DNA from: Somniosus microcephalus
Lineage: Eukaryota
Direction: 5' to 3'
Assembly: GCA_052327205.1 (NCBI GenBank)
Contig: CM126209.1
Coordinates: 63,860,001-63,924,000 of the forward strand
DNA length: 64,000 nt
Below are positions 11,601-64,000 of this stretch, piece after piece. The translations under genes and the position numbers were made by a program. The notes beneath the pieces are model-generated. The model searched no databases, was not told the DNA's origin, and saw nothing but the letters and a program-made list of their open reading frames with translations. Each line of letters begins with the position of its first letter. Within the stretch, counting starts at the first letter, position 1.

Positions 11601-12313
11601 TGCTTTGGTTCCCTTACCTTTCCCTCTTGTTGGAATGTACCCAGCCTGTACTTGGAACATCTCCTCCTTAAAGATCACCCATTGTTCCATTACAGTTTTT
11701 CCTGTCAGTCTTTGGTTCCATTTTACCCTGGCTAGATCCTTTCATATCCCATTGAAGTTAGCCCTATTCCAGATTAGAAGTTCCACTCTAGATTGCTCCT
11801 TGCTCCTCTCCATTGCTAATCTAAATCTTATGATACGATGATCACTTGTACCCAAGTGTTCTCCCACAGACACTTCGTCGACCTGGCCCACCTCATTCCC
11901 CAGCATCAGATCCAGCAATGCCTCCTTCCTAGTTGGGTCAAGAACATACTAGTCAAGGAAATTCTCCTGAACACATTTCAGAAATTCCTGCCCCTCCTTT
12001 CCCTATACCCTAGCATTATCCCAATCGATATTTGGGTAATTAAAGTCCCCCAATATCACCACTCTATAGCTCTTGCATATCTCTGCGATTTCCCTGCAGA
12101 TTTGCTCCTCTACCTCCCTCTCAGTATTTGGAGGCCTGTAGAATGCCCCCAATAGCGTGATCATACCCCTTTTGCTCCTCAACTCTAACCAAATGGACTC
12201 TGTCCTTGTCCCCTCAAGAACATCCTCCCTTTCCACTACAATGTCTTCCTTAATCAGCACTGCCACCCCACCTCCCTTTTTTCCTTCCCTATCTTTTCCC
12301 AACACTTTGTACC

Positions 12314-13262
12314 TGATGTAAGAAAAAGGAGACTTACCATCAAGTAACTTTAAAGTAAGCTTTAAGTAACTTATAAACACACTGGCCTAGAAATTGAGTT
12401 TTGGCGCAGCCAGGGCTTTAGCGCCGGAAGTTAGTGCCGGAGCTAAGTCGCGCTGGTCGGGCCCAAAATTCAATAGTTCTGCGCCCAAACGGCTGCCAGC
12501 GCTGCTGAGAGCTGTTTGCGCCTGAAAACTGGCGCAACGCGCTGAATTTCGGCGCTATTCCGGCGCTGCGGCGCCCGCTGCGGTGCGGCAGGTTCGGGAA
12601 GTGCAGGCCTCCTCCTTCCCTTAAGGAGGAGCTGCCTGCACCCGGCCGCGGCCCGCGAAAATCTTTTTAAAAATGAGCCCGGCACCTCGGACAAGTGCCG
12701 GGCTTGCTTCTGTTCCGGGGGGGGGGGGGGGAAGTCCGGGGAGGGAGCTGCGGCCAGGCGGCCGGCGGGAAAGCGGCCGGCCGCCGCGGGGCCTTTAATG
12801 CGCCGGCGCAAAGTCATGTAAGACTCTGTTGCCAGAGTCTTAGTTGCGGCTGCCACGGGCGAGGCGGCCGCAACTGAATTTCGGCGCTGGGGCCCGTCGG
12901 CATGGCAACCGGGACGCTGCGCACACCGATGACGTCATCGGTGCCGGCGCAGCGCTACCGGTCTACCGCGGCGGAAGGGCCCCAGGCAATTTCGGCGCCG
13001 GCGCCAATTGCAGCGCTAGGCCCTCTAGCGCCGCAAAATCGGCGCTAAGGGCACTGAATTTCTAGCCCACTATATACAAGAGAGGTCTTTACCATGCCTC
13101 TGGTAGAAGCCTCTTACAATACTGAACAGACCAGTATTTATACCAGTCCAACAGGAAGTGACATATGACAGGAAGTGAGGTATGTACACAGTTCATAGTT
13201 CATAGTTCACAGTTCACAGGAAGTGATGACATAACTTCCCGGAAGTTATTATTTTTATCACA
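12314..13262 (-). repeat. 3' LTR (261 bp once the MITE and one TSD copy are removed)
   Basis: Matches 17993-18253 with no difference seen by eye, apart from the 685-bp MITE and duplicated ACT. Confidence 0.95.
12384..13068 (+). mobile_element. Harbinger MITE copy 1 (685 bp) inside the 3' LTR
   Basis: TIR GGCCTAGAAATT...AATTTCTAGCCC. The ACT TSD is confirmed by the empty site in the 5' LTR (AAACAC-ACT-ATATAC). Confidence 0.95.
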
Positions 13263-13295
13263 TTCTTCCCTCCTGCAGGATTAGGAGGCTGTGGT

Positions 13296-16200
13296 CTACC
13301 TTTTGGTCCGCAGCCGCCGAACAAGGAAGAGTCGCACCCGTTTGGATTCCCGTCGTAGAGGGTCGCTGGTCCGCTTACATGCGGTTGGCCATTGGTCAGA
13401 GTCCGTGTGGCCTGGATTGCCCTGTGAAGGGTCGGGGAGATCATGGCTTCGAGTACGAGCCCCAATAGGTTCCAAGTCGGACTGCCTCTGTTCAGAGGGA
13501 GGTGCAGAGCTGGTCTGTGGCGGATCAGTACTTTCATGCGCAGTACTGGGAGGGTCGCAACCTTGAGCACGGGGTTCTACCGGCACCAAGCTAGTTGGTG
13601 TCCGATCAGGATCCTGGAGAGGGGTACCCGATAGGTCCCAAGAGTTTCCTGGTGAAATGCCATCACCCGATGTCCCACTAGGTCCTGGTGGGCAGGGAGC
13701 CAGATCCCGTAATGATACGGTAGATTCTCGGCCGTCGGAATATCGTATGTTTGCATAGGTGGGGTTGGCATCGGTTAGTTCAACCTCGTCTACAAGAGGG
13801 TCATTTTTAGACGTCCGAACGTATCTTCGGAGTAATACAGGTCCAGGAGTAGTTAGCCATGACGGGAGTGATGTCCCATGAGATGAGCGATGCTGGAATC
13901 CAAAGAACCGCTCATGAGGTGTAGTATTTGTGGCTGTAGAAAGCAGGGACCGTATAGAGTGCAATGCATCCGGAAGCACTGTTTCCCATTGCTGGTCTGG
14001 TAGGCCCCGAGATCTTAAAGCGAGACGTACGGAATTCCAGATGATACCGTTATACCTCTCTACCTGCCCATTTCCGATGGGATGGTATGGTGTTGTTTTG
14101 CTTGTAGCAATTCCCTGTTCTGAGAGGTAGTCCTTGAGTTCCCTTGACATAAAGGATGGACCCTGATCTGAGTGAATATAAGCCGGCATGCCACAGAGAG
14201 AAAATACCTGCTCAAGGCAGCAGATTACTGTGGACGCCAGCATATTGGAGCAGGGGAAGGCAAACGGAAAACGTGAATATTCGTCGATCATGGTGAGCAA
14301 ATATGTGTTCCGAGTTGAAGAGGGCACTGGGCCCTTAAAATCGATGCTAAGTCGTTGCATCGGTTGGGTTGCATGTATGAGTATACCATCTGAGGGGCGG
14401 AAGAACTGAGGTTTTAATTCCGCACAAAGCCGGCATTCTGAGCATATTTTCTTTACATCTCCAGTGGAAAAAGGGAGATTCCGTGATCGTACGAAATGTA
14501 GCATGCGCGTAACGCCAGGATGACACAAACCATTGTGGACATCCATGAGAGTGGAGGATGACATAGTGGAGCAGAATGCCCGTGTGAGGGTGTCCGGGGC
14601 CACATTCTCCTTGCCAGGCCGATAGAGAATCGTATAACCAAAAGAGGCCAGTTCCATCCTCCAAAGTTGTATTTTATTATTCTTAATTTTGGTTCGTTTT
14701 CGATTATCGAGCATGAAGGCGACTGATCGTTGGTCCGTGATCAATGTAAAGTGCTGGCGAGCTAGAAAATGGTTCCACTTCCGTACTGCCTCTATGATGG
14801 CTGTGGCTTCTTTCTCAACCGGAGGATAATGTAGCTCGGCACCTTGTAAGGTCCTGGACATAAATGCTACAGGACGACCTTCCTGATTCAGAGTAGCCGA
14901 GATCGCCACCTCCGAGGCATCACATTCAACCACGAAAGGGAGATTCTCATCAATGGAGTGAAGAGCCGCTTTCTCCAACTGTTTTTTGAGAAGGTTAAAG
15001 GCTGCAACAGCCGCTGTTCCCAGTGGAAATGATCTAGCATGCAGCAAGGGTTGGATTTTGTCCGAAAAATGAGGAATCCATTTAGCGTAGTATGCAAACA
15101 GACCGAGAGCCCGACGTAAAGAAGCCAGATTCTTAGGTGACGGGAGCTCTTGGAGCGGGCGAAGTCTTTCTGGGTCTGGCTTAATGATACCATTGCCTAC
15201 GCAGTAGCCAAGGATGTTGATGGTCGGTTGCGACTCAACAGATTTGGATTCATTCAGGGTCAAATTACGGCGATGGAGGGCATCCCAAAATTTTTGGAGG
15301 TTGGAGTCGTGTTCCTGTTGATCGTGACCTGCAATGGTAATGTTATCAAGATAGGGAAAAGTGTCCCTTAGGTTTTCCTGCTTAACCAGGCCATCCATTG
15401 CCCGTTGAAAGACAGCCACTCCATTAGTAACCCCGAATGGGAGGCGACGAAATTGGTACAGCCGTCCATTAGCCTCAAAGGCTGTGTACTGCTTATCTGA
15501 GACCTTCAAGGGTAACTGATGATAGGCACTTTTTAAATCGTAAGTTGAGAACACTTTGTATTCGGCCAGTTTATTAACCATATCATCAATGCGTGGCAAT
15601 GGGTAGGCGTCCAAGTCGGTATATTGATTGATGGTTTGCGAATAATCGATGCATAGTCGCTGTTTGTGAGGTTTTAGAGGGTTCTTGACAATGACGACTT
15701 GAGCCCGCCAGGGCGACGAACATGGTTCAATGATATCCTCTGCTAGAAGTCGAGAGATTTCAGCCGCAATAAAAGATCGGTCTTCCTGATTAAAGCGCCG
15801 CGATTTCGTTATTATCGGTTTGCATTGAGGCAGAATACTGGCAAATAATGAGGGTTCATCAAGTGAAGCTGCTGATAATGCACAAAATGGTAATTTAGAC
15901 GATATATTAGAAATAGTAAGTCCGGGTTTGGATCCACCAAACTCAATGGTGAGTTTCTTATGCTGTTTTTGGAAGTCCAGCCCTAAGAGGAGATCACTAC
16001 ATAAGTCCTTGAGCACCGAAAGTCGGGTGGAGGGATACATACGACCATGAAGTGTCATATCAACAACACAAAAGCCGGAGATTCTGGTATTAAGTGATGA
16101 CTGGGCCATCGCAATTGCCTGGTCCGTTGGGAAGACATGTAGTTTCAATTTCGCAACAATCTGTTCCTTAATGAAACTATCAGTACTTCCTGAGTCAATT

Positions 16201-17222
16201 AAGGCATCTAAGGTATGCCCTTTAATTGAAATTTTTGTGGCTGCATGAGACAGGTTCTGTGGGCAAGCAGCTGTAATTGGTGTCGTTGCACAGAGAGTGG
16301 CTAAAACTCTCGGTGTGCTTCTTCGGGAGAGAGCTCGAGAGGAAGCTTGATAGGTCCTAGCTGGAGCATCTTGATAGGCCCTAATTGGGGCAGTTCGGTA
16401 GGCCTTAGCTGGATTGGCCCTCGTAGAGGCCCTTGATAGGCAAACTTTAGCAAAGTGTCCTTTTTTCCCGCAATAACTGCAGATTGCATTGCGAGCAGGG
16501 CAGGTTTTCCTAGGGTGAAAAGCATCTCCACAAAAGAAGCATTTCTTCCTAGATTGCCAAGAGGCTGCTAAAGTGGGGTCGTCCTCCTCTTCTTCATCAG
16601 AATTATCAGAATTAGATTCCCCCATGATAGGGTTCACCTGAGACCGCTTGAATTGTCTGGTTGCAGCTACAGCAGCAGATCGAGATCTGGGCAGCTGATA
16701 GAGGTCTGCATTTCTCTTTACCAAATCCAGTGAACAAGCTAGGTCAAAAGCTTTTTGTAGCTCAAGTGTTTTACTTTCTAGTAGACGCTGGCGTATAAAT
16801 GGAGAGGCAATCCCGCAGATGAAAGCATCCCGAATCATTTCTTGGCGGTACAGCTCAGCTGAGGCTGCCTGAAAGTTACAATCTACGCTGAGCCTGCGAA
16901 GTTCTTGCAGGAATTCGTCAATTGATTCCCCTGGCCCTTGTCGGGCTGTGGCCAGTAGATGTCTAGCATAGACCTCATTTGGGGTCTTCGCATACAGTTT
17001 CTTAAGTGCCCGAATCACCTCTTCGTAATTATCCCATTCATCAACATATTCGAACACTTTTGGGGTCACATAATTGACAAGTATCTTCAATTTAGCAGGA
17101 GCATCCGCTTTACATTCATCCAGAAAATTCTCAAAAGTACGATACCAATGCTTCCATACCCTGCCAGCTGCTGGTGTATTCGGGTCCAAGTCCAGACGAA
17201 TAGGTCGAAGGATTTTCTCCAT
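13296..17222 (-). CDS. Gag-Pol polyprotein (gag, two zinc knuckles, protease, RT, RNase H, integrase), 1308 aa
   Basis: CFFCGDAFHPRKTC and CSYCGKKGHFAKVC; ALIDSGS; YDLKSAYHQ, LPFG, YLDN; ECDAS, EKEA, ITDQ; HNGLCHPG..CSECRLC, IDFKG, HSDQG, QVERYN. Confidence 0.96.
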   Translation of the reverse strand: MEKILRPIRLDLDPNTPAAGRVWKHWYRTFENFLDECKADAPAKLKILVNYVTPKVFEYVDEWDNYEEVIRALKKLYAKTPNEVYARHLLATARQGPGESIDEFLQELRRLSVDCNFQAASAELYRQEMIRDAFICGIASPFIRQRLLESKTLELQKAFDLACSLDLVKRNADLYQLPRSRSAAVAATRQFKRSQVNPIMGESNSDNSDEEEEDDPTLAASWQSRKKCFFCGDAFHPRKTCPARNAICSYCGKKGHFAKVCLSRASTRANPAKAYRTAPIRAYQDAPARTYQASSRALSRRSTPRVLATLCATTPITAACPQNLSHAATKISIKGHTLDALIDSGSTDSFIKEQIVAKLKLHVFPTDQAIAMAQSSLNTRISGFCVVDMTLHGRMYPSTRLSVLKDLCSDLLLGLDFQKQHKKLTIEFGGSKPGLTISNISSKLPFCALSAASLDEPSLFASILPQCKPIITKSRRFNQEDRSFIAAEISRLLAEDIIEPCSSPWRAQVVIVKNPLKPHKQRLCIDYSQTINQYTDLDAYPLPRIDDMVNKLAEYKVFSTYDLKSAYHQLPLKVSDKQYTAFEANGRLYQFRRLPFGVTNGVAVFQRAMDGLVKQENLRDTFPYLDNITIAGHDQQEHDSNLQKFWDALHRRNLTLNESKSVESQPTINILGYCVGNGIIKPDPERLRPLQELPSPKNLASLRRALGLFAYYAKWIPHFSDKIQPLLHARSFPLGTAAVAAFNLLKKQLEKAALHSIDENLPFVVECDASEVAISATLNQEGRPVAFMSRTLQGAELHYPPVEKEATAIIEAVRKWNHFLARQHFTLITDQRSVAFMLDNRKRTKIKNNKIQLWRMELASFGYTILYRPGKENVAPDTLTRAFCSTMSSSTLMDVHNGLCHPGVTRMLHFVRSRNLPFSTGDVKKICSECRLCAELKPQFFRPSDGILIHATQPMQRLSIDFKGPVPSSTRNTYLLTMIDEYSRFPFAFPCSNMLASTVICCLEQVFSLCGMPAYIHSDQGPSFMSRELKDYLSEQGIATSKTTPYHPIGNGQVERYNGIIWNSVRLALRSRGLPDQQWETVLPDALHSIRSLLSTATNTTPHERFFGFQHRSSHGTSLPSWLTTPGPVLLRRYVRTSKNDPLVDEVELTDANPTYANIRYSDGRESTVSLRDLAPCPPGPSGTSGDGISPGNSWDLSGTPLQDPDRTPTSLVPVEPRAQGCDPPSTAHESTDPPQTSSAPPSEQRQSDLEPIGARTRSHDLPDPSQGNPGHTDSDQWPTACKRTSDPLRRESKRVRLFLVRRLRTKR

Positions 17223-17294
17223 GATGGGTGGTTCCCTGGATCCTTAACTTCCGAGTTTGTCTGAAGGTCTAGTATTTGTCAGTGTAAATACTAA

Positions 17295-17978
17295 GGCCTA
17301 GAAATTGAGTTTTGGCGCAGCCAGGGCTTTAGCGCCGGAAGTTAGTGCCGGAGCTAAGTCGCGCTGGTCGGGCCCAAAATTCAATAGTTCTGCGCCCAAA
17401 CGGCTGCCGGCGCTGCTGAGAGCTGTTTGCGCCTGAAAACTGGCGCAACGCGCTGAATTTCGGCGCTATTCCGGCGCTGCGGCGCCCGCTGCGGTGCGGC
17501 AGGTTCGGGAAGTGCAGGCCTCCTCCTTCCCTTAAGGAGGAGCTGCCTGCACCCGGCCGCGGCCCGCGAAAATCTTTTTAAAAATGAGCCCGGCACCTCG
17601 GACAAGTGCCGGGCTTGCTTCTGTTCCGGGGGGGGGGGGGGAAGTCCGGGGAGGGAGCTGCGGCCAGGCGGCCGGCGGGAAAGCGGCCGGCCGCCGCGGG
17701 GCCTTTAATGCGCCGGCGCAAAAACATGTTGGACTCTGTTGCCAGAGTCTTAGTTGCGGCTGCCACGGGTGAGGCGGCCGCAACTGAATTTCGGCGCTGG
17801 GGCCCGTCGGCATGGCAACCGGGACGCTGCGCACACCGATGACGTCATCGGTGCCGGCGCAGCGCTACCGGTCTAGCGCGGCGGAAGGGCCCCAGGCAAT
17901 TTAGGCGCCGGCGCCAATTGCAGCGCTAGGCCCTCTAGCGCCGCAAAATCGGCGCTAAGGGCACTGAATTTCTAGGCC
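17295..17978 (+). mobile_element. Harbinger MITE copy 2 (684 bp) in the Gypsy 5' leader
   Basis: TIR GGCCTAGAAATT at both ends; flanks TAA and GAA (TSD with one mismatch). Differs from copy 1 at only a handful of positions. Confidence 0.93.
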
Positions 17979-17992
17979 GAAGTTACTTAAAT

Positions 17993-18253
17993 TGATGTAA
18001 GAAAAAGGAGACTTACCATCAAGTAACTTTAAAGTAAGCTTTAAGTAACTTATAAACACACTATATACAAGAGAGGTCTTTACCATGCCTCTGGTAGAAG
18101 CCTCTTACAATACTGAACAGACCAGTATTTATACCAGTCCAACAGGAAGTGACATATGACAGGAAGTGAGGTATGTACACAGTTCATAGTTCATAGTTCA
18201 CAGTTCACAGGAAGTGATGACATAACTTCCCGGAAGTTATTATTTTTATCACA
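17993..18253 (-). repeat. 5' LTR (261 bp)
   Basis: TGTGAT...CATCA on the minus strand; TATAAATA at 18133-18126; several CAGGAAGTG/CCGGAAGT ETS-like motifs. Confidence 0.95.
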
Positions 18254-18410
18254 GTACCCTTGAATATTAAGTGCCTAGTCCTCACTGTTTTTAAGCCACG
18301 TTTCCGTTATTGCACAACATCATATTGCTCACCAACCTTATTCACCACACTTTGTGCGTTTACATACATGCATTCTAAACCCATTTTTGAATTTTTTGTA
18401 GTCTTTGGTA

Positions 18411-26950: not shown

Positions 26951-27833
26951 ACAGAATAACCAGGGTGTAAAGGTAGGAGAAGTTGTGGAACACAACAGCC
27001 GGCAGCCTGAGAAAGGAGGGCACAGCTGATGGCCCAGTGTTTTCAATAAATAATGGTTGACTCAGCAAATAAAATCACTTCACACCTGCCTGTTTCCCCC
27101 CACACCCTGACAAAGTGCCTCAAGTGTCTATATTTTCCCTGCCACCATCCAAATCCCAAAAGTTGAAAGCGTATTCAGAAATGAACTCAAACCTCTGTGA
27201 GCCAGCTGTGATTACAGTACAGAACAACATTCACCCAAAAGTGCCAACAATCTACTAACTCTATCTACAACTACCTTCTTAGCAGCAGTTCTACCATTAG
27301 TGCCAGCTAACTTACTTGCTCAAACTCTTAGGCCTAGAAATTCGGTTGGTTGCGCCAGCGATTAGTGCCTAAAGAGCCCAAGAATTGGGGCGTTACCCAA
27401 TGTTCGGGCGGGCGCAATGAAGATAGCGACACCTCCCATATTGCGTATCCATTTAGCGCCAGCGCTAACTCTTAGCACGCGCCCGCGTGCGCAGGCAGTT
27501 AATGATGCCATTTCAGTGTGCAACGCCTTTTTGGCGCCCCTGACCGGATATTCGGTGGCGCCCGGAACCTTTCCGCCTGGTGCTATTAGTGACAGTTGGA
27601 TGGAACGTTCCCAGGCCCTTCTCGGAGTTGGGGGGCGCTATTTAAAGGGGACAGCTCTAGTATAAAAGCTGCAGGCACTTGGCCTGTTCATTCTGTTCGT
27701 TGCTGGAGAGAGTTGGTGAACTACTGTTGCACACTATTTTTTGGATTTAGCCTTCGAAGACTTGGGACCTGCAGCCCTGTCCGGAGCAGTTGGAGCGCTA
27801 GACATTACTGCGTGTTGCCCGTCTGGCATAGCA

Positions 27834-29003
27834 ATGGGAGCTGCTTTGGAGGGGAACGTCCTCATGGCCGGACACTTGGAAGGGGCACAGAGACGGCGGG
27901 AGAGAGGGCCGGGATTGGCCAGAAGGAGGAGGGGCAATGGAGGTCGGCCAATCCGACGATACGCTGCGAGGGTTTTCAGGCAGCAGGTGTCATACCTTAC
28001 CATGTCCGAGGAGCAGTGTCTGCGAAGGTTCAGATTCGGTAAGGAGGTTGTGACTGAGCTGTGCCACCTGCTTGCTGAGGATCTGCAGCCGCGTCTACGG
28101 TGCAGGACCTCTCTGGCGGTTGCCGTCAAAGTGACTGTTGCCCTGAACTTTTACGCAAGCGGATCCTTTCAGTCAGTCACTGGGGACATCGCGAATATAA
28201 CACAATTTGCAGTGCATTGTTGCATCCGGCAAGTGACAGCTGCCCTCTATAGAAGGAGGCATCAATTAATCACCTTCCCTGTGACCCTGGAGAAGCAGGC
28301 GGAGCGTGCGCAGGGCTTCGCTGCTATTGCGGACTTCCCCATGGTGCAGGGGGCCATAGATTGCACACACGTGGCTTTGCGGGCGCCATTGCAGAATCCA
28401 GAGGAGTTCCACAACCGAAAGGGGTTCCACTCCCTCAATGTCCAGCTGGTCTGTGACCACCGCCAGATGATAATGGCAGTCAACGCACAATTCCCTGGGA
28501 GCAGCCACGATGCGTTCATCCTGCGGCAGACCTCAGTTTCTGACCTTTTTGAGGGCCCGGCTCACCCACGAGGCTGGCTTCTGAGCGACAAGGGCTATCC
28601 TCTCTGCCCATGGCTCACGACCCCACTCCGTTTGCCCGCCACCCCGGCAGAAGAGCTTTACAACAGCAGCCATCAGGCGACCAGGAACATTGTCGAGCAC
28701 ACTATTGGTGTGCTCAAACAGCGTTTCCGCTCTCTGGACCATTCGGGGGGAGCCCTGCAGTATTCGCCGGAGCAAGTGGGTCGCATCGTCGTCGTCTGCT
28801 GCATGCTCCACAACTTGGCCATTCGACGAACCCAGCCAATGCCAGCCGACCCTCAAGGTCCAGCAGAGCAGGCGGACGAGGAGGAGGAGGAGGAGGAGGA
28901 GGAGGAAGAGCAGGCGGACGAGGAGGAGGAGGAGGAGGAAGATGGGAGGGCTCCTGAAAGTGGAAGGGCCGTCCATCAGAGGCTCATAAGGACTCGGTTC
29001 TAG
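27834..29003 (+). CDS. Harbinger DDE transposase (HARBI1-like family), open frame
   Basis: ALNFYASGSFQ, GAIDCTH, RKGFHSLNVQLVCD, PGSSHDA, SDKGY, RNIVEHTIGVLKQRF, CCMLHN, poly-E tail. The ATG at 27834 was chosen by alignment with the MGA start of H2. Confidence 0.93.
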   Translation: MGAALEGNVLMAGHLEGAQRRRERGPGLARRRRGNGGRPIRRYAARVFRQQVSYLTMSEEQCLRRFRFGKEVVTELCHLLAEDLQPRLRCRTSLAVAVKVTVALNFYASGSFQSVTGDIANITQFAVHCCIRQVTAALYRRRHQLITFPVTLEKQAERAQGFAAIADFPMVQGAIDCTHVALRAPLQNPEEFHNRKGFHSLNVQLVCDHRQMIMAVNAQFPGSSHDAFILRQTSVSDLFEGPAHPRGWLLSDKGYPLCPWLTTPLRLPATPAEELYNSSHQATRNIVEHTIGVLKQRFRSLDHSGGALQYSPEQVGRIVVVCCMLHNLAIRRTQPMPADPQGPAEQADEEEEEEEEEEEQADEEEEEEEDGRAPESGRAVHQRLIRTRF

Positions 29004-29298
29004 GCTCCTCTGGTGGAATGATGGCTATCATTCGTCCTGCGCGCTTCGGATCGTTCAAAGCTTAGGAAGTCCACTATGAGTGTATATAGTTACGAGTACC
29101 ATTGTAAATAAAAAAAATTCTTTATTGTCAAAAAAGTGCTTCCTTCCAGCATAACAACGTCATGTCAACAGAAACCATAACTAACAAAATAACAGTCAAC
29201 TCTCTGGCAAAGCCGCAAAACTAAACAAACCATCACAAACATCACATCAGGTGAGGGCGTCCTTGAATTTGGAGGAAGAAACGTCTCAGCAACTCCCT

Positions 29299-31331
29299 CT
29301 ACTGTTGGTCCCTTGATGGAGACCGACTTCTCTTTCGCGGTCGGCCCCTTCCCTCCCTGCTGCTCCTACGTAATTGAACCCCAGTGGCGGGGCCAAGGCT
29401 GGGGACGCCTGGTGACTGTCTGGAATCGCAGAAGCCCCTGATGGACGGCCTGGACGACCTCTGGGCTTGGAGGGTGCAGAGGCTGGCTGCTTGATCTGAC
29501 CATGGCTGGAAGCAGTGTGCACTGCAGGTGGTGGCAGCTGCACTGCAGACGTTCCAGCGGTGGCATGAGCAATGGTCACCTGCCGAGAGAGGACACCTGC
29601 ACCATGGTCGGACGACACACTGGCTCTCGGAGGGGACTGGCTCGGCTCCACCGCCACAAGTGACTGCTCCACTGATTCCTGGCCTCGTGTGGTACTGGAA
29701 GGGCCCGAGGTGATCCTAGCTGATGCAGATAGGATGGCAGCAGTGAGAGTTCGCGTTGCCTCAATCTGGGTGTGGACGAGGCCAGCAAGTGACTGCGTGG
29801 CAGCAGTGAGGACCTGTGTGGCAGGTGCCAGTGCTTCAGAGAAGCCCTGGACAGTTCTCTCCATTGCTTCGGACAAGGCTGGAGCAGTCCGTTCCACTGC
29901 CTCGGACAAGCCCTGGACATACCTTTCCAGGGATTGTCCGAAGCTCTGAACAGTCCTTTCCATAGTGGCCTCGAAGCCCTGGACAGTCCTCTCCATTGCT
30001 GCCCCGAAGCCCTGGACAGTCCTCTCCATTGCAGCGCCAAAGTCCAGCACACTCTTTGCCAGTGTTTCTATCGACTGAGGCATCCTCCCCACTGCAGCCA
30101 TAAGCTCAGTGTGCCTGAGCCGGGCCTGGGTGCTCATTTCAGCCAGGCTACGCACCTCCTCTGCACTCTGTGCAGCAGTCATCGCTCCCTGCCTCGCCCT
30201 CCGGGGAGCCGGTGCCCGAACTTGCCTACCCCCCTTGCGTTGATGCAGGCCGCTTGTTCCGGCAACTGGCTCCTCATCAGAGCACCCCCCTCCCCTCCAG
30301 GGAGCTACTATCCCCAGTCTGCAGATGTGTTGGCTCCCCTGCGGCGGGAACGGATGGTGCGGCTTCCTCCTGATCCTCGCCTCCGGAGCCACTGGCACTG
30401 GCAGCTTTAGGGCCCGGATCCCGAGCTGGTGATGCAGCATCTGAAAGCAGGGAGGTGGAAGAGTGGCTTTAGCAAAAGGACAGGTTGGCAGCAAGGCATG
30501 CCAGATTGCGGCAAGACTATGACATGGCTCCACAGTGGGAAAGCATGCTGGCAGGGGGACCAAGTGGAAGGAGACAGCTGAAAAAGGTGAGATCCTTACC
30601 ATTGCTGTCGACAATGGGGTCGGCAGCTGCAGTGGTAACAGGACCACTCAGAGGTCCTCCAAGAATCTGATGCACTCTCTCCTCGAGATCCGTCAGAGTG
30701 ACCACTTGTGGAGGTCCTCCACCGATTCGAAGCTGGTCCTTGCGAATCGTCGCCAGCTTGGACTGCAGGGGAAAGAAGGGGAAGTTCTGTTACATGATGC
30801 CCTGAGTGATCATCTCATGCCCCCCATGGTGCAAGAGCCCTTACATGATGCCCTGAGTGATCATCTCATGCCCCCCATGGTGCAAGAGCCCTTACATGAT
30901 GCCCTGAGTGATCATCTCATGCCCCCCATGGTGCAAGAGCCCTTACATGACGCCTTGAGTCAAATGTGCATGTGTGTGCCCAGAAAGGGCCATGGGTGCT
31001 TGCTGACACATGGCCACTGGGGCATCGTGCACCCTGTAGTCATGAAGTCAGGTGCAGATGGAGGGAATCAGAAGTTTGCATAAACACCACTCACCCTAAC
31101 GACCCGAGTGAGGTCGTTGAATTTCTTCCTGCACTGAACAGGGCTCCTGGTCGCCATGCTGCTGGAGTTGACCCTCTGACAAACATCCATCCAAGCTCGG
31201 CGGTAGTCCTTTTGATTCGGCCTCCTGCCATTGTCAGGACAGAGAACATCTCGACGGCGCTGCACTGCGGCCACCAACTGCTCCAGAGCCTCAGTGCTGA
31301 TGCGCTCTGCTCTCTGTCTCATCTTCTCCAT
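29299..31331 (-). pseudogene. Three-exon Myb/SANT-like accessory gene of H1 (exons 31331-31095, 30762-30600, 30440-~29299), two apparent frameshifts
   Basis: LEQLVAAVQRRRDVL..W..V..RSPVQCRKKFNDL; GTGAGT and GTAAGG donors, CAG acceptors. Exon sizes 237 and 163 nt equal those of H2. Frame breaks near 30290 (G-run) and 29405. Confidence 0.88.
30790..30962. repeat. 51-bp tandem repeat (~3.4 copies) in intron 1 of the H1 Myb-like gene
   Basis: Unit TTACATGATGCCCTGAGTGATCATCTCATGCCCCCCATGGTGCAAGAGCCC at 30790, 30841 and 30892. Confidence 0.95.
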
Positions 31332-33539
31332 CTTGACCAAGTTTTTTGCGCCAGAGAAGGGCGTGCGCCGATTCTGAGGCCTACAGGGTGATGAGTGTGG
31401 AAGCTGAGGCTGACTGACCCACCCCTTTAAGAGCCGGCCGGCGCCTGGAAGTCTCGTGGTTATCGGTAATTGAGATCACCTGTGCTGCGCCCGTCTGCGC
31501 CGACATTGGGTAGCGCTGGAAGTTTTGCGCCTTAGGAGGCCCGTGCAACGTCTGAATTCGCGCCTCAATCACCTTTGGGGGCGATGCAACCCAATATCGC
31601 GCCAGGCGGCGATAAGTTTCGTCTGGCTATAAACTTTGCGCAGCGCCAGTTCTAATGCCTCAAGCGGGACTATACCCAATTTCTAGGCCTTAATCTGCCA
31701 CTCCTGCAAGGCGCTCCCTGAGTGAGGTGAGATTGGTTTAAGTCCCCTGGAGCCTCAGAGGTCTCAGGTGGCTATTGTTCCAGTGAAGCTGCTGTCCTAG
31801 AGAGATCGGTTTATGGCAGCCTTTCTCTTGCAGTGGCAAGGGGTGTATGTCTGAAGCTCCCTTATGTCCAGGCTTTGGAGGTGGTCCAAAGGAAGCAGGC
31901 TCATTGCCACTCTCTAGAGTGACAGTGACATTTGTAATCACTCCTTGCAGCATTCAATCTACAAAAGCCAGCAGGGAATCTTATCTGAAAAGATTTTATA
32001 AAAAATGAGACACAAATTTCTCATTTCAATAAAGCATGAGCATAATCATATTGAAACATCAGATAAAATGGGTAATAGTCCTCATAATGTCTGAAAGCAT
32101 TAAGGGATGGTGACATTTAGATGCGATTCACTGTTCATTCTGATTGAAAATTCTGGAAAGGTGATTACTTTTGAAAAAGAACTCCACATATTTCACAGCT
32201 GTATTGGAAGTGGCTGCTGTAATATTGTTTCATCGTGTGGATGCTGTTTGGGAGACATCGCACCACCTGTGTCTAGAAATTAGATGTGGCACTCAATACA
32301 ATTACAGCAAACAATCTTATTTTCTTAAGAAAAACTGGTGAGCATGGCACATTACAGTGAATTTTTAAAGGAGAAATAAAACCCAGAACAGCTTTCAAAC
32401 ATTTCTTGGCCATTTATAAACCACTGATATTGTAAAGGCATTCTGAAATGGCATCGTTATCTTCTGGTGCTTGAGCTTCTAATAAGATTGGAGTGGAGCG
32501 AAGTGCAAAAGTGGAAAACCCAATTCCTTTTATTTAAGAATTGTCGCCAGCTTGAAAGAAATCAATATTATTTTCATCATTATCATATATTGAAATGACA
32601 ATGAGAATAATGGCCTTGAAATTATACTGGACAAAATTAAAGTCAAAATGGTTAATAATGTTCATCTGCAATGTCTGTTGTTTTAACACAGGCGTTAACC
32701 CATTTAAAATAAATTCAAAACTAAGTAAAATCTGCTTGTGATTGGATATTTTTGAATTTCTGTTGGTATTTTCTTTTTAAGTATCTACATACCGCAGTTA
32801 TTAAAAATAAACACACAAGGCTAGAAATCACTGTTTTTGCATTTAGGAAGCATTAATTGAGTGTGGCTAAAGTTGTCCCAGCGTAATTAAGATTGAAATA
32901 CTGCTGCTTAACTTGCCTGAGATGCACAATAACAAATGTGCAACTGGATATCCAGTAGAATATAATGATCTGAAGCAGAGCCCTGAGTGAAGCAGATAGC
33001 AGGCACAGTGGGAGCACCGATTATGAATGCTCACACCGCTGCTATTGAGGTCTTCCATAGCTAGCTTTAACATGGTTGGACATCAGATACAGACATCTTG
33101 ACGCCATGGATTCACAGATTTCTTAGCTGGCCAAAATACTGCTCTCCGGCAGATCAGTGAACATGTTGAGGGACTGCCCAGCAGCAGGGGTATGCCTGTA
33201 GTAGTCACAGATGATGCAGCTGGCTCTGGAGGTGACGGCACTGTCACATTTCTCTCTGGCTTCATTCTGTGGCACTCTGTTCAGCTGCAGTGACACAAAC
33301 TCACCACATATGGGCTGAAAACCTGGCTCAATGAGTAGCTCACCAGTAGGACACCGTGCAGCATCTGATTTCCTATCCGTGCAACGGTTTATTAGTGCTT
33401 GCAAGGGCATGAGATGATTCACATGGTCAACTAGCTACTTGAGAGTCTTACCTTCCTGGTCAAGCAACCATACAATTAGATCATCTGGAACCAGTTCCAC
33501 AAATCTATCCCTCGACATTAGGTGACAAAGACCTTATAA

Positions 33540-50163: not shown

Positions 50164-51969
50164 TTACATCTGGCTTGAGGATCTTGGAGAAGAGGGTACA
50201 TCAGTGTTGGCATCATTGTCATCAGGTTGGAGTTGGACATCTGAAGATGGGCCAGGAACAGGGTTCTCAAGTGATGAAGCATGACTACGACAGACGGCCT
50301 TTTTAAAGACTTCTTCCAGTGTCATCTGTCTCATTAACATTGGTTTCTGTCTAAGCAGTCTCTCTTTAATTGAGTAAACTTGCATAATCTCTTGCTCACT
50401 GATAAATGCACGTTTTTCAAGGCCAGCAATTAACTGATCACACATTGTCACCATATTGTCTATGGGGATTTTTTCACCTGTGTTCACAATGTCATCATCA
50501 TCATCACTACTGTCCTCATGCTTGTCTTTATTTAACACCATTTCAGCAATTTCCCCATCACTCAACGAATTCACAACAGGTGCATCATTGTCAATGTTCA
50601 GCACTTCTTCGATGTCAGCTTCCTCTAACGTATTTACACTTTCGGATGATAAACCTTTGGCGTAAGTGAGGAGGTTTGATATCATCATCTTCTCCTGACT
50701 GACAGGAAATCCTTCAAACTCGTCATCTGCAGGTCCATCTTCATGAAACATCGTTGAAGGCCAAAGTCTGTGCCAAGCATTTGTTAATGTTGGTTTGTCA
50801 ACATCGTTTCAAGCATTAGCAACTGCATAAATGGCATCCTTAACATTGAATTCTTTCAGGAAGCTTTGGACTCCTTCGCCTCTGTTGATTACATCAAGCA
50901 TAGAGTTCAAAAAAACGTCTTTATACTTGCTCTTCATGGAGCGTAAAATTCCTTGGTCACAAGGCTGTATTAAAGATGTCACATTAGGGGGAAAGTTAAT
51001 GCCGAAAACATAACTTTTCACAAGAAGTTCAGGAGGGGGATGTGCGGAGCAGTTGTCCAGGAACAATAAAATTTTGCAGTTTTCTTCCAGTCCAACTTGC
51101 CTGCAATGAGCTCGTGTCGCTGGTACGAAGTGGTTATTGAACCAGTGAGAAAATATTCCTCTGGTTACCCATGCTTTCCTGCTCGCATAATAATGCACAG
51201 GTAAATTGCATACACCTTTCAAACATCTCGGATGTTGGCTTTTTCCAATCACTACCAACTTTAACTTGTGTGTGCCTGCAGCATTGGCACACCCAAGAAC
51301 AGTCAACCTGTCCTTAGCATCCTTAAAACCTGCTGGTGCACTCTCATCAGCCGTTGCTAATGTTTTTCTAGGAACGTAGCGCCAGAACAGAGCTGTTTCA
51401 TCAGCATTGTAAATTTGTTCAGGACCGAGGTTTTCATCCGATATTATTTTTGCAAACTCATCTATGTAATTTTCAGCTGCTTCATGATCAGCAGAAGCTT
51501 TTTCGCCACAGATTTTCAGATATTTTATACCATGACGCTTCTTAAATTTATGCAGCCAACCTTCTGAATATTCACACTCAACTTCAATGTTCAGTTCTTC
51601 ATGGTATATTCTAGCTTGCTTCATGACCATCAAACCAGTCAGTGGCACACGTTCACCTCTGCGTTGTCGAATCCACTCAATCAGCACACGGTCAAGATCT
51701 TCATTTTTTGCCCTATGCAATGTTTTCCTAATTTTCATTAGTTTATGGTCATCACTGTCAGTGTAAAATTTCAACAACTTGTCTTTCTGTTTCTTTAAGT
51801 CATATACGGTGGTACTTCCCACACCATATTCTTCAGTAAGATGTCGCACAGACACACCACGATCAAGCTTCTGCACTAACTCCACTTTCTGCGATATCGA
51901 TAATGAGTGATGCTTCCTTCTCTGCTTCTCACTGTTACCCATTGGGGTATCTGCAGCTCTTTTTAGCAT
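50164..51969 (-). pseudogene. pogo/Tigger transposase (HTH-psq, CENP-B HTH, DDE_1; JRKL/TIGD-like) with one in-frame stop
   Basis: SEGWLHKFKKRHGI, YNADETAL, FLDNCSAHP, IQPCDQG. The TGA at 50811-50809 sits in AVANA*NDV, where W is expected, and the frame continues to 50164. Confidence 0.93.
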
Positions 51970-51990
51970 TTTCACAAATTGTTAAAAGCC

Positions 51991-52150
51991 AGCAAATATC
52001 TAAGAGAGCAGCAAATATCTAAGAGAGCAGCAAATATCTAAGAGAGCTGCAAATATCTAAGAGAGCAGCAAATATCTAAGAGAGCAGCAAATATCTAAGA
52101 GAGCAGCAAATAGCAGCAAATATCTAAGAGAGCAGCAAATATCACACAGA
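51991..52150. repeat. 19-bp tandem repeat AGCAAATATCTAAGAGAGC (~8 copies) just upstream of the Tigger ORF
   Basis: Directly visible array. Confidence 0.92.
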
Positions 52151-52747
52151 GCAGCATAACACCTGCGTGGGTCAAGCATCGGCAGCGTCGGGTCATGCTT
52201 TGCGCCACTTTCGTCTTTCAGAGGTTTTCTGGTTTCAGATGTGCGGATAAAGGCTGGTACACTATCTCTTATCCGAAATGGGGTGGGGGTCGGCGGGGGT
52301 GGGGTACGGCGGGGGGGTTGGGGGTCGGTGGTGGTCGGGGGTCGGTGGGGGTCGGGTTCGGCCGGGGGGTTGGGGTGGGGGTCGGCGGGGGTCGTGGTCG
52401 TGCGCATTTCGGTTTTCAGAAGTCATGCTTTGCTCCACTTTCGGCTTTCAGAGGTTTTCTGGTTTCGGATGTGTGGATAAAGGCTGGTACACTTACGCTG
52501 AGCGATTTCGGTTTTCAGAAGTGCGGAAAAATGCTACACTATCCCTTATCCGGCTAGGCCTGTAAGTCGTGCGCCACTCTGGTCATGTCGTGCGCACGAC
52601 TTACGCTGACCGAAAAAACCTTCGGTTTTTAGAGGGTTTCGGTTTTCGGAAGTCCGGATAAAGGGTAGTCTACCTGTAATGGGGAGGGGGCTGAGTTCAT
52701 CAAAGCTGCAGGCAGCATTCAGCAGCTCGTAAACAATAATTTCAAAA

Positions 52748-58935: not shown

Positions 58936-59831
58936 GTGATCACATGATGCAGGTGGCCAATCAAGGATGGGTAGTTGGGAAGACCATGTCTGAGTGTGAA
59001 TCACATGGCAATCAGAAGTAGTGATTTTATATGATTTAGGTAATAATATTCTGATGACAAAAGCAATAGAGAGAGCAAGATAAGACTGTATGGCCTAGAA
59101 ATTCAGTCTGGACACTTTTGGGGCGCTAAAGTCGGGCACTCGCTAAAGTTAGCGCCCGCCGGAAAGTGTAGGCCACATCGCCGAAATTCAGTAGAGTTGG
59201 CCCTAAGTTTGGCCGAGCGCTGAAACTGGCGTTGAAATGCTGTGTTCCGGCACTAAGCCGGCGATGCGGCCTAATAACGCCGAAGCCGGGCGCAGCGCAG
59301 GTGCGGTCATGTTTTGATTGACAGCAGACACCCTGACGCCGGCCAGCTCTTAAAGGGGGAAGGGTCAACTTTGACTGCTGCCACGCCCTGCATACTGGAG
59401 CCCTGCAGCTAGGCCTCAGCACTACTGGTGTGCCAAAATAGCGCCTGGAGCAATGGAGAGGGCCCGTGAGCGAGCGCAGCGCTTCTCAGAGCATGCTCTG
59501 AGTGTGCTCATTCATGGTGTGGAGAAGAGAAGAGCGATCCTGTGCCCGGACAGTGGCAGGAAGGCTCCCAGGAGCCAGTACAGGAGAGCCTGGGGCAAAA
59601 TCGCCCGCAGGGTGTCATCCACCTGTGATGTCCCCAGGAGTGCGGACCAATGCCGCAAGAAGTTCAACGACCTCACTCGGATGGTGAAGGTGAGTACCCT
59701 TTCCAGTGTCCCCCTCATCCTTGCATGTGCACCTCACATTATGGGCAAAGGGACCTCAAAGGCCTAATGGGCAGCCCTCCTCCCGCAGCAATGGCACTTG
59801 CATGTTCATCAATAGCACTTTCTGCACTTAA

Positions 59832-60000
59832 CACACTGGCCAAGCTATTCGACCATGGGAGGCAGTGCACCCAGCAACAGGGCACCACACTGGCCAAGCT
59901 ATTCCACCATGGGAGGCAGTGCACCCAGCAACAGGGCACCACACTGGCCAAGCTATTCCACCATGGGAGGCAGTGCACACAGCGACAGGGCACCACACTG
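59832..60000. repeat. 54-bp tandem repeat (~3 copies) in intron 1 of the H2 Myb-like gene
   Basis: Unit CACACTGGCCAAGCTATTCCACCATGGGAGGCAGTGCACCCAGCAACAGGGCAC. Confidence 0.95.
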
Positions 60001-60504
60001 TACTTAGAGGCCGTCCTTTCTCTTGCAGGCCAAGCTGGCGAGCAATGTAAGGAGCCAGGCTGTCACTGGTGGAGGCCGTCCCGAGTACCAGGTGCTCACT
60101 GATCTGGAGGAGAGCGTGGCACGACTCATGCGTGGCCGGGTGACTGGCCCTGTCGCGATTGGCGAGGCGGACCCTGTACTGGTACCCACTGGTAAGGACA
60201 TGACCGGTTGCACCTCTCTCGTTGCCCTCGCGCTTCAGATCTACATCCTTTCCCACTGACCGACAAATGCGCATAATGCACCACTCAGGCCTCCCTCGCT
60301 GACGGCCTGTCCTCACTCTAAAGCTACTCTTGTGCCTTCCTGCTTTCAGCTGGTGAGGAGGAGGTGGTCCCTGAAGCGCAGAGAGCCAGGCCCTTGGAGG
60401 AGGAGGACGTCGAGGACCAGGAGGAAGGCGGCACATCGGGGGAACCCTCCTCCACGCCAGGGGATGGCAATGGAGGGGAGACGTCTGGCCTGCAGGAGAG
60501 CCAG

Positions 60505-60783
60505 GGGGAGGTGTTGGAGGGGAGGGCCGAAGCTGGTCCCAGTAGGGTGGACGCACGCGGGAAGGGTCCGGCAGCATGCCAGCCTTCTCCCCAGAGGGGG
60601 GAGGTGTTGGAGGGGAGGGCCGAAGCTGGTCCCAGTAGGGTGGACGCACGCGGGAAGGCTCCGGCAGCACGCCGGCCTTCTGCCCAGAGGGGGGAGGTGT
60701 TGGAGGGGAGGGCAGAACCTGGCCCAAGTGGGGTCGACGCACGCGGGAAGGGTCGGCCAGCTCGGCGGCCTTCTCCCCGGAGG
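60505..60783 (+). repeat. 93-bp (31-aa) coding tandem repeat, 3 copies
   Basis: GEVLEGRAEAGPSRVDARGK..A...PSPQR repeated three times. Confidence 0.93.
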
Positions 60784-61993
60784 GAGAGTCCGCCCTCCAG
60801 TCCGGACACGGTCCTCGCCCAGGAGGTGCGCGTCCTCGATGAGATGTCGGCGGCGTCTGAGCGGCGCCACCAAGAGTTCATGGGGGTGGTCGAACAGATG
60901 CCTCACGCCATTGAGTCCCTGGCTCAGAGTGTGGTGGCTTTCGGGGAATCACAGGCCAGGGGGTTCGAACAACTCACGGCAGCGCACGACAGGGGTGTCC
61001 AGCAACTCGCGGCAGCGTAGGACGCGGGTGTGCAGCAACTGGCGGCAGCGCAGGACGCGACTCGCGAGATGAGTGGTGCCGTCCACACACTGGCAGAGCT
61101 GATGCGGGCACATACCAGGGCAGTTCGGGCACTCACTTCTGCCACACTCGCTGTGGCACGGAGGCATCGCCATGGCACCCGCCGCCCTGCTGCAGCACAG
61201 CGGTCTGGCCTCCCCCAGATTGCTGCACTTGCTACACTGCCAGCCCGGCCGAGTGCCAGTGTCTCTGGCGAGCAGCGCGCACCTGCCATCAGCCAGCTTG
61301 CCCCCAGTGGTGCTGCCGACACTGCCACTCCCCCAGCCAAGGTGCGACGAGCTGCTGCTAAGACTGATGCTGCCCAGCCACAGCTGCAGCAGTCAGCAGC
61401 CGGCCCCTCCCGGGCCAGGCCTCGTCTAGGCCGACCCCCAAGGGCATCTGCCGACACGCTTTGTGGTCCTCATGAGCCTTCCCCCAGCCTCGCCACACCC
61501 GCAGGGCCCAGGTTGAGGCGGAGAAGCAGGTCGGCCAGGGGCCGGAGAAGCCTGTCTAAGGACTCGCCCTCTCGGCACACCCATTAGAGTGTGGTGAGAG
61601 CGGTTTCTTTTATATTGGGGGGCTTGTGTTGTGGGGGGCATTATTTTGTTAAGGCCGAGGATCAAGGCATTTTTTGTTTTCATGGGGGTGTCTCTGTTGT
61701 GGCGGGGTGGCTTATTTTTGTAAGGCCGCTGTTGAAGGCCTTTTGGATGGGCAAGTTTTGTTAGTCCTCCCCAGGTTTTGGGAGTGACAGATGTTTTTGA
61801 CTGTTTTTTGGGGGTCTTGTCTGTTTTTCTGTTTCATGTGGGAAGGGCCCTGAGTTTGTGAAATAAAGCTTTTGATTTATTCAGCATGTCCAGGTGTCAT
61901 GTTTGAAGTGGTTGTTGCGTTAACCGGCTGAGGGCTTGCGGAGCGGCTGCCTCAGGTGCGTTCATTGCCACAGGCCATTCCCTGACAGGGGGC

Positions 61994-63127
61994 CTAGAAG
62001 TGTCGATCAATAAGCCCCCGGCGGACGGCCCTTGGCCCTTGTCGCTCCCTCCTGGGCTGGTCCTCCTCCTCCTCCTCCTCTTGCTCGTCCTCCTGAGGTG
62101 GTGGTGCAATGCCAGGTGGCAGTGCCTGAGTCCTGCGGATAGCCAGGTTGTGCAGCATGCAGCACACGACGACGAACTGGGAGACTCTATCCGGCGAATA
62201 CTGAAGAGATCCTCCGGAACGATCCAGGCAGCGGAACCGTTGCTTGAGGACGCCTATCGTTTGCTCGATGATGTTCCTTGTGGCTTGATGGCTTTCGTTG
62301 TATGCCTCCTTCGCTGGGGTCCTGGGCGCGCGGAGCGGGGTCATGAGCCATGTACACAAAGGGTAGCCCTTGTCCCCGATAAGCCATCCCCTTGGTGGAG
62401 GCTGTGCCTCGAACATGTCAGCCACAGTAGTCTGGCGCAGGATAAATGCATCGTGGCTGCTTCCTGGGAAGCGGGCATTGACAGCTAGGATGCGCTGCCT
62501 GTGGTCACACACCAGCTGTACATTTAGGGAATGGTAGCCCTTCCGGTTGCGGTAATCCTCGGCATTGTGGATAGGTGCCCGCATAGCCACATGCGTGCAG
62601 TCAATGGCGCCCTGCACCATGGGGAAGCCCGCGATCCTGCCAAATCCAACTGCACGCTGCTCCTGCCTCTGTCAGGTCATGGGGAAGGAGATGAATTGGT
62701 GTCTCCTCGCGTAAAGTGCATCGGTGACCTGCCGGATGCAGCGATGCGCAGCGAACTGGGAGATGTTCGCTATGTCCGCAGCAGCGGCTTGGAAGGAGCC
62801 GCTTGCATAAAAGTTCAGAGCCACCGTGACCTTCACTTCCACCGAGAGAGACGTCCTGCACATCAGCTGTGGACGCAGATCTGTGTGAAGCAGCTGGCAG
62901 ATCTCTGCAACCACCTCCCTTCTGAAGCGCAGCCTCTTCACACAATGCGCCGCAGTCATGGTGAGATAGGACACCTGCTGCCGGTATTGCCTGAGTGGGT
63001 AAGGCCTACGTTGCCGACGCCTGATGGCCCCTCTGCGTCTAGGCATGGCTGGCCCTCTCTCACAGCGTCTGCGAGCCCTTCGCACATAATGCTGCAACTG
63101 AGGGTTGGCCCCCCATACAGCCCCCAT
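61994..63127 (-). pseudogene. Harbinger transposase of H2 with a single in-frame TGA (62674-62672)
   Basis: ORFs 62672-63163 and 61994-62620 are in the same frame (FPMT*QRQEQRAVGF); GAIDCTH, GDKGY and IIEQTIG are intact. Confidence 0.93.
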
Positions 63128-64000
63128 AATAAAGTTGAGAACAGATAAATCACAATGAATCAAATGTCAAAGCACTGGCCAGAAGCCAAAAATACCTCTC
63201 CTATGTTGTCCCAAATCTGTAACCTCTGTCCCTTGGTCTCTGTCCAGAAATCCAAAGCAGTAAAGTCATTGCAGCAAAATGGCTGGGCTTTATAGGTCAG
63301 TGTAAGTGCCCTTTAATTTGCGCTCCCCGAGGCCCACAGGGCCTCTTTTGCGTTCCACCTCACAGTTCTTAGCAGCGCCACGCCCACATTGGGCGGGCGC
63401 CACTGAATTTCCGGTTTGGGGCGCACAAACAGCGTTGCGCGACGATATGACGTCATAAGCTGCGCGCGCACCTGAGCGGGCGCAAACACTTTGCGCCGGC
63501 GCTAAATGTCAACTGAATTTGGGCGTCGGCGCAGATTGGACTGCGTTCAGGCGCTAAGTGTCTAGCGCCGGAAATATAGCCCTTTTATGGCGTTAGCGGC
63601 TGGCGCAACCCACTGAATTTCTAGGCCTATATCACTCAATATGAAACTTGCGACAATTGGGATTAATTGTTGGCACTGGACACTGTTATCTCTATGACAG
63701 AACCAGTAAGAAACACTCTTCCTGACACTGGGGGACAAGATCTGCTTTGGAGGACCACTGTGAAAATATTTGGAATGAGAAAGGAGTGTTTCAAAAGTCT
63801 GTACCATAATGTAAATATTTAGGTGAAGGAATAACAGACAGAATTTAGTAGGATTCTGCATAATCCTATAATGGATTTTTGTTAGGAATATGCCTAACCA
63901 AAAATCTATTACAGAATTTTGCAGCCTCTCATTTAACATTGTTGCCCATCTAGCTAGTTTGCCTCTAATTGCATGTGCCTACTTTAAGAACTCAGATGGA

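Follow-up and report, generated by a model that had tools for sequence, protein, structure and literature searches.

Probable self-priming in a young Ty3/Gypsy retrotransposon from a deep animal lineage

Introduction

How does an LTR retrotransposon start reverse transcription when the place of its primer-binding site (PBS) lacks the TGG of a tRNA-type site and is complementary to its own LTR? This question is raised by a stretch of 64,000 nucleotides of the Somniosus microcephalus genome (GCA_052327205.1, contig CM126209.1, positions 63,860,001–63,924,000), hereafter the window, in which position 1 is the first letter. In the Tf1/sushi group, the self-primer is the extreme 5' end of the RNA. 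Tf1 is the precedent for self-priming (PMC7175516, PMC5341516), which so far has been tied to the Tf1/sushi chromoviruses and to a plant copia lineage in the account of PMC6317226. The Tf1 primer is described as cut between bases 11 and 12 (PMC7175516), and Tf1 cDNA as retaining a copy of the PBS (PMC11042837). Here, we follow up a sequence-only reading of the window through public sequencing runs, relatives of the element in other hosts, RNA folding and phylogeny.

Materials and Methods

Four public runs (X1, X2, X23, and X24) were aligned to positions 16700–18400, X23 and X24 being RNA runs chosen by species label. Relatives came from scans with protein alignment A1, which gave 80 + 8 loci (metagenome part: the best 80 of 306, from 19 of 64 parts); five assemblies contributed another 30. 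Gag starts were located with a profile at 43 sites, reduced to 32 unique sites by removal of 9 duplicates and 2 sites with too little upstream DNA. Families were compared on 29 sites, comprising the 24 pairing sites described below, the divergent relative L052, three contig-end junctions and the window, which fall into 23 families (22 of relatives). As controls, we used 23 other Gypsy RT hits in 20 regions of G001 and G002, of which 21 had LTR pairs. These two genomes (loci L084, L085, and L239–L258) are labelled as bacterial MAGs, and each has about 147 matches to animal retrotransposon proteins, from which we conclude that they are mostly animal DNA. The quick tree held 91 rows and the careful tree 31 of those rows.

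Results and Discussion

The element at the center of this question lies on the minus strand and has the following parts:

18253–12314, minus strand: complete Ty3/Gypsy element, with the self-pairing PBS at its left end
17993–18253, minus strand: 5' LTR, 261 nt, TGTGATAA...TTACATCA, matching the 3' LTR at 261 of 261 positions
13296–17222, minus strand: single open gag-PR-RT-RNase H-IN frame, 1308 aa, with two CCHC arrays and the RT motif YLDN
13263–13273, minus strand: polypurine tract GGAGGGAAGAA, just before the 3' LTR
12314–13262, minus strand: 3' LTR, interrupted by MITE copy 1
18254–18258 (other copy 12309–12313), minus strand: target-site duplication GGTAC; the element interrupts a LINE
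17295–17978, no strand assigned: Harbinger-type MITE copy 2, 684 nt, directly after the 12th PBS base and missing from other copies
12384–13068: MITE copy 1, 685 nt, inside the 3' LTR, with a 3-bp duplication

Given that the LTRs are identical apart from the MITE in the 3' copy, and that GGTAC stands on both flanks, the element is a young insertion; in the public runs, reads from uninterrupted copies of the LINE depart from the stretch at 18254. Paired TG...CA LTRs, a target duplication within 4–6 bp, a polypurine tract and the order PR-RT-RNase H-IN place it in Ty3/Gypsy, and the best solved relative of its protein is Ty3 Gag-Pol (E 3e-60). The acidic motifs of RNase H are conserved in alignment A1. 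The 1308-codon frame contains neither env nor, by Pfam, a chromodomain. Its double Gag zinc finger is presumably Mag-like. U3 (18145–18241) contains several ACTTCC(T/G)G motifs, which we take to be ETS-like, along with a palindrome at 18241–18222 and 7-nt tandem repeats.

Two features at the left end of the element form the pairing:

17980–17991, minus strand: PBS position TTTAAGTAACTT, separated from the LTR end by one nucleotide (A, 17992)
18040–18052, minus strand: predicted self-primer tract, which pairs over 12 nt here and over 13 nt in MITE-free copies, in a register common to 22 relative families

On the minus strand, the 5' LTR end TTACATCA is followed by the single A and then by TTTAAGTAACTT (17991–17980), with no TGG. 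This 12-mer is the exact reverse complement of AAGTTACTTAAA at 18051–18040, and its complement occurs in the window only there and in the 3' LTR copy. The sequence-only reading had described all of this, namely a young Gypsy element without a chromodomain, no TGG and the exact 12-mer match, and each of these points was reproduced. It had also predicted that the pairing would extend to 13 nt upon removal of MITE copy 2, and had named a TGG in MITE-free copies as evidence against self-priming. Such copies are present in the public data. A joint from 17292 to 17980, skipping 687 nt (the 684-nt MITE plus a 3-nt target duplication), was supported by 2 contigs in X2, by 39 reads with 10 starts in X23 and by 49 reads with 19 starts in X24, and X1 had a variant joint from 17290 to 17980 with 3 letters between. 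The joints in X2, X23, and X24 demonstrate that MITE-free copies exist naturally, are transcribed over the LTR-gag junction and carry the 13-nt pairing, and TGG is absent from all of them and from the variant in X1 as well.

Of 20,000 dinucleotide-shuffled versions of the LTR, 7 gave a match of at least 12 nt beginning 0–3 nt from the LTR end. Complementarity by chance in A+T-rich DNA could nevertheless be invoked, as an equally long match exists at 17 of 18,200 other window positions; it is refuted by the relatives, and we give it next to no credence. Among their 32 gag-start sites, 24 keep this register and pair at 12–13 of 13 positions, compared to 1 of 711 random places searched alike. This is the unbiased pairing count, since the 23-family set was picked for pairing. 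At none of the 32 sites was a TGG observed behind the LTR end. A PBS starting with TGG was found neither in this element nor in its MITE-free copies or relatives. The close homologues (P0001–P0102, 39–67% identity) belong, by host name, to crustaceans, nematodes, corals and anemones, a tunicate, a sea cucumber, a butterfly and a ray.

Eight of the 32 sites pair at fewer than 12 of 13 positions. Read by eye, L022, the second site of L042, and L054 have no recognisable 5' LTR, and L031, L058, L068, and L091 are imperfect and look decayed, three of these four coming from families that pair well; the 3' LTR of L068, also read by eye, still pairs at 12 of 13 positions with its own PBS. The divergent relative L052 (1380–1500) has a short LTR, and its PBS pairs fully only with 3 G-U pairs. 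The paired tract of L052 ends in T and not in the usual TAAA.

The pairing is maintained while both partners change. There are 22 different PBS 12-mers among the 23 families, and in this set, which was chosen for pairing, PBS and LTR pair on average at 11.7 of 12 positions within a family and at 7.2 of 12 across families, with 2 of 506 cross pairs reaching 12. Three or four types of base pair occur at each of positions 5–13. An example exists inside one family: L006 combines AGTTTATTAAA in its two LTRs with the PBS TTTAATAAACT, and L009 and L029 combine AGTTGATTAAA with TTTAATCAACT; the base change in the LTR of L006 is thus matched by a compensating PBS base in comparison with L008, L009, and L029. 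The compensatory covariation that had been suggested as a check is therefore found both across the 23 families and inside one of them, and the complementarity is conserved among relatives. In L005, a change is present in both LTRs with the PBS unchanged, as would be expected if one RNA end, whichever it is, gives both new LTR tracts and the PBS is inherited apart.

The same data bear on a primer of host origin, that is, a tRNA half, an internal tRNA fragment or another host small RNA, with the LTR match being incidental. The PBS has a loose consensus in the clade, which raises cross-family matches above random and could reflect such a shared partner. However, the PBS 12-mers differ among families, each pairs best with its own LTR, and a one-base change is compensated within a family; a conserved host RNA, tRNA fragments included, could not have followed these changes, and a host primer is hardly credible to us. 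ARAGORN predicted no tRNA gene in the window or in 41 loci. The controls present the opposite picture: all 21 carry TGG at most 4 nt from the LTR end and have a self-match of just 8–9 of 13 positions, several of them being copies of one family. From the look of their PBS, we take these elements to be of the Mag, CsRn1, and Gmr1 types. Such tRNA-primed animal Gypsy lineages share hosts and overall anatomy with the self-pairing elements, and differ from them by TGG and by their place outside the clade. Scans of viral contigs with the element protein and with A1 gave no relative, and a motif scan of viral contigs gave no convincing LTR-PBS junction by self-pairing among the matches listed (at least 120 loci).

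The geometry of the leader is also shared. A single nucleotide separates LTR end and PBS in 22 of 23 families. In the 23 families, the tract stops 20–69 nt inside the LTR end; its last bases are AA in 22 of 23, and the next are mostly GCCT. Pairing is near-perfect to position 13, drops to 34 of 66 at positions 14–16, still above the background of 0.32, and is at background from position 17; the longest perfect matches, in two instances, reach 18 nt. Given that pairing is near-perfect through position 13, the primer would be at least 13 nt long, and a Tf1-like primer of 11 nt, beginning at the A of AGT, was rejected. The last six bases of the tract are AATAAA in 6 families, ATTAAA in 5 and other sequences in 12, including the window (CTTAAA).

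These hexamers raise the alternative that the pairing only hides a poly(A) or other control signal at the 5' LTR and that a different, unseen primer is used. Both the canonical hexamers in 11 of 23 families and the presence of the pairing partner behind the 5' LTR only are consistent with masking. Yet the other 12 families pair fully without a canonical hexamer, the duplex ends 1 nt from the LTR end in all but one of the families, which is the place required of a minus-strand primer, and no other PBS-like motif was seen beside the LTR. We therefore consider masking alone an unlikely account. Masking and priming can coexist, and the pairing may mask the poly(A) hexamer at the 5' LTR as well as prime.

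Three further features concern the leader RNA and its start, with positions counted from the predicted cut:

18026–18039, minus strand: hairpin right after the predicted cut, of the RCCT..AGGY type in relatives
18126–18133, minus strand: TATA box TATAAATA at −94, which predicts a start near 18105–18103
18057, minus strand: candidate RNA 5' end at −18 from the cut, weak and in X23 only

In 17 of 23 families, a stem of at least 4 bp begins at +1, directly behind the tract. The mean energy of this hairpin is −3.4, compared to −1.2 ± 0.3 in shuffles, with 0 of 200 shuffles as good, and the leader of the window folds like those of its relatives (z −3.4). No counterpart of the Tf1 duplex 3' of the PBS was detected in the 23 families, the longest stem formed with the 25 nt that follow the PBS being 6.0 versus 6.4 by chance. 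Rfam gave six matches at 17900–18300, all far under gathering scores, so neither a ribozyme nor a known RNA was identified in this region. Downstream of the TATA box, 18072–18128 contains two hairpins, one seen by eye (18128–18108) and one by folding (18105–18072), without an Rfam match.

The evidence on the start of the RNA points in two directions. The TATA box that the sequence-only reading placed at 18133–18126 is present, and the start at about 18103 derived from it stands as a prediction only. The hairpin at 18105–18072 begins at this predicted start and fits a start near −64. Among the 23 families, TATAWA occurs within 150 nt upstream in only 5, at no common position, and a conserved TATA position was not found. 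In X23, 12 molecules, which may be duplicates, end at 18057 (depth 21), 5 nt upstream of the 13-nt tract in this one run, and gag-sense depth falls from 26 at 18011–18067 to 5.7 at 18068–18124, a standard stranded library being assumed. X24 has no dip at 18068–18124, with a depth of 80 versus 122 and 66 in the adjoining bins, and both runs contain many opposite-strand fragments. No poly(A) junction was present among the loose read ends listed for 16700–18400 in the public runs. For the window family, a start at −13 to −18 seems to us a roughly even bet, and a start near −64 is plausible, if short of an even bet. A second TATATA lies at −28 from the predicted cut.

We propose that this young Ty3/Gypsy element of a deep animal lineage, whose PBS pairs with a 12–13-nt tract of its own LTR, probably uses its own RNA as the primer of reverse transcription. 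Although predicted from sequence comparisons, tRNA-independent self-priming is well supported by the covariation, the MITE-free copies and the TGG-bearing controls. In this model, the tract copy in the 5' LTR would pair back onto the PBS and be cut after ...TAAA, at 18040|18039, likely by the RNase H of the element as in Tf1. The cut site would be the helix–helix junction of the predicted primer duplex and the adjoining +1 hairpin. Reverse transcriptase would then extend the primer into U5 and the remaining R, transfer to the 3' R would restore the tract, and plus-strand copying of the primer would renew the PBS. The primer would most likely measure 13–18 nt, or about 64 nt if transcription begins at the site that the TATA box predicts, and for either start it would be the 5' piece freed by one cut, which is the chemistry of Tf1. 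For roughly half of the families, the six bases at the primer's 3' end would double as the poly(A) hexamer, and only at the 5' LTR would pairing conceal it.

Priming could instead come from the 3' LTR copy of the tract, either as the RNA 3' end or through a cut in the 3' R; this tract is identical, and the present data do not tell the two copies apart. However, local folding over 20–69 nt favours the 5' copy, and cutting the 3' copy would presumably lose the acceptor homology for strand transfer. An RNA 3' end lies 10–30 nt past its poly(A) hexamer. A hexamer at the tract end, as in 11 of 23 families, therefore puts the natural 3' end further downstream and makes a 3'-end primer unlikely, and we judge priming from the 3' copy, in either form, to be very unlikely. 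The sequence-only reading had suggested that the primer might come from the RNA 3' end or from an internal cut, which would be a tRNA-independent route different from that of Tf1. The evidence speaks for independence from tRNA but does not extend to a different route; an internal cut would not be one, since Tf1 already cuts internally as described in PMC7175516.

Our preferred reading, self-priming from the 5' copy, can be set beside known systems. Tf1 and Tf2 of Schizosaccharomyces pombe, Tj1 and the Tf1/sushi group including Tcn1 are described as having a PBS by the 5' LTR that is complementary to an LTR tract and not to a tRNA (PMC7175516, PMC4600332), which is the arrangement found here. 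Tf1/sushi elements are also alike in their Ty3/Gypsy domain order and, as predicted here, in a primer that comes from a cut at the duplex end, according to PMC6317226 and bioRxiv 2022.12.06.519325. In contrast, they carry a chromodomain at the integrase C-terminus, which the present lineage lacks (PF00385 was absent from all 102 close homologues), and the paired tract of Tf1 is 11 nt compared to 13–16 nt here. In place of the three-duplex "pretzel" with PBS-adjacent sequence reported for Tf1 (bioRxiv 2022.12.06.519325), the present lineage has the local +1 hairpin. The lineage, in its predicted working, is like Tf1 but lacks two Tf1/sushi features, the chromodomain and the pretzel. The RT of the fungal chromodomain-bearing element P0105 is only about 28% identical to that of the window element.

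All self-pairing loci and close homologues form one clade, with 34 rows and an SH-aLRT of 100 in the quick tree and 7 rows and 100/100 support in the careful tree, on a stem of about 1.3 (1.27) changes per column, and the TGG controls fall outside it. In the free tree, the clade was not grouped with chromovirus proxies. Its union with one fungal and two plant chromovirus proxies was 13.6 log-likelihood units worse but was not rejected (p-AU 0.153), in a tree without Tf1 or sushi RT. The TAR lineage of plant Ty1/copia (Houba, Osr-1) also has a self-complementary PBS outside the chromoviruses; it belongs to another superfamily and kingdom, and its self-priming is likewise only predicted in the account of PMC6317226. 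Kinship with the Cigr-1 clade is a lead only, compared by description and not by sequence. Cigr-1 has a single ORF of about 1,210 codons and LTRs of about 245 nt. The Cigr-1 clade (Ciona intestinalis; molluscs, annelids) is alike in its two CCHC arrays and in having no chromodomain, and differs in its protease pattern TANG, as described in PMC2774666, the eight commonest variants here being of the MAxSS type without TANG. The supplements of PMC6238403 and PMC2774666, as far as accessible, contained no matching sequence that would give the clade a name. We found no report in the literature of self-priming in a chromodomain-less animal Gypsy lineage.

The RT catalytic motif of the element is YLDN and not YxDD (15342–15353, minus strand; ORF residues 624–627), and we found no paper on a retrotransposon with a YLDN motif in the literature. 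In alignment A1, 39 of 61 proteins have YxDN and 22 have YxDD. YxDN marks a nested subclade (98/96 in the careful tree), with some YxDD members inside it in the quick tree, and this subclade consists of intact elements, the young window copy included. The third catalytic aspartate, changed in YxDN, is presumably equivalent to D211 of Ty1. Ty1 D211N was reported to keep weak polymerase activity and to abolish transposition, with partial rescue by RNase H suppressors (PMC2148107). A link between YxDN and self-priming is unsupported, because the basal YxDD members L083, L011, L013, and L050 self-pair too, and the occurrence of a YxDN active site in young, intact copies poses an enzymological puzzle of its own.

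We offer only tentatively, as a possibility that we rate below even, an invention of self-priming separate from that of Tf1/sushi, in a Gypsy lineage that is old, animal-wide and non-chromoviral and has an RNA design of its own. This design would combine a primer of 13–18 nt (or longer, capped and hairpinned), a cut between two stacked helices and last primer bases that double as a poly(A) signal, in a lineage of which most members would transpose with a YxDN RT, the change that blocks Ty1. Self-priming throughout a chromodomain-less animal lineage would in itself make tRNA-free priming more widespread than has been supposed, with perhaps more than one origin. This touches a question raised in PMC3601003, namely which of the two modes, self-priming or tRNA priming, is the older one in LTR elements. 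Self-priming elements would presumably escape control by tRNA fragments that target the PBS, and LTR finders that depend on a PBS would overlook or wrongly score them. With its short and conserved leader, the mechanism lends itself to in vitro study.

The window also contains two possible sources of its MITEs:

27331–31689: full Harbinger-type transposon with a transposase frame and a second frame
59092–63627: full Harbinger-type transposon with a transposase frame and a second frame

Both have terminal repeats in common with the MITEs at 12384, 17295, and 45337, and are likely the helper family of the MITE; the transposon at 27331–31689 has a TTA duplication. MITE copies 1 and 2 differ by 9 mismatches and one gap, copy 2 having unequal 3-bp flanks (TAA versus GAA, plus strand). 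They lie about 4.9 kb apart within one young element, and two near-identical copies in the same element possibly reflect local hopping. Elsewhere in the window, long minus-strand frames at 50164–51981, which we take to resemble a Tigger/pogo transposase, are accompanied by a 19-nt tandem repeat at 51973–52172.
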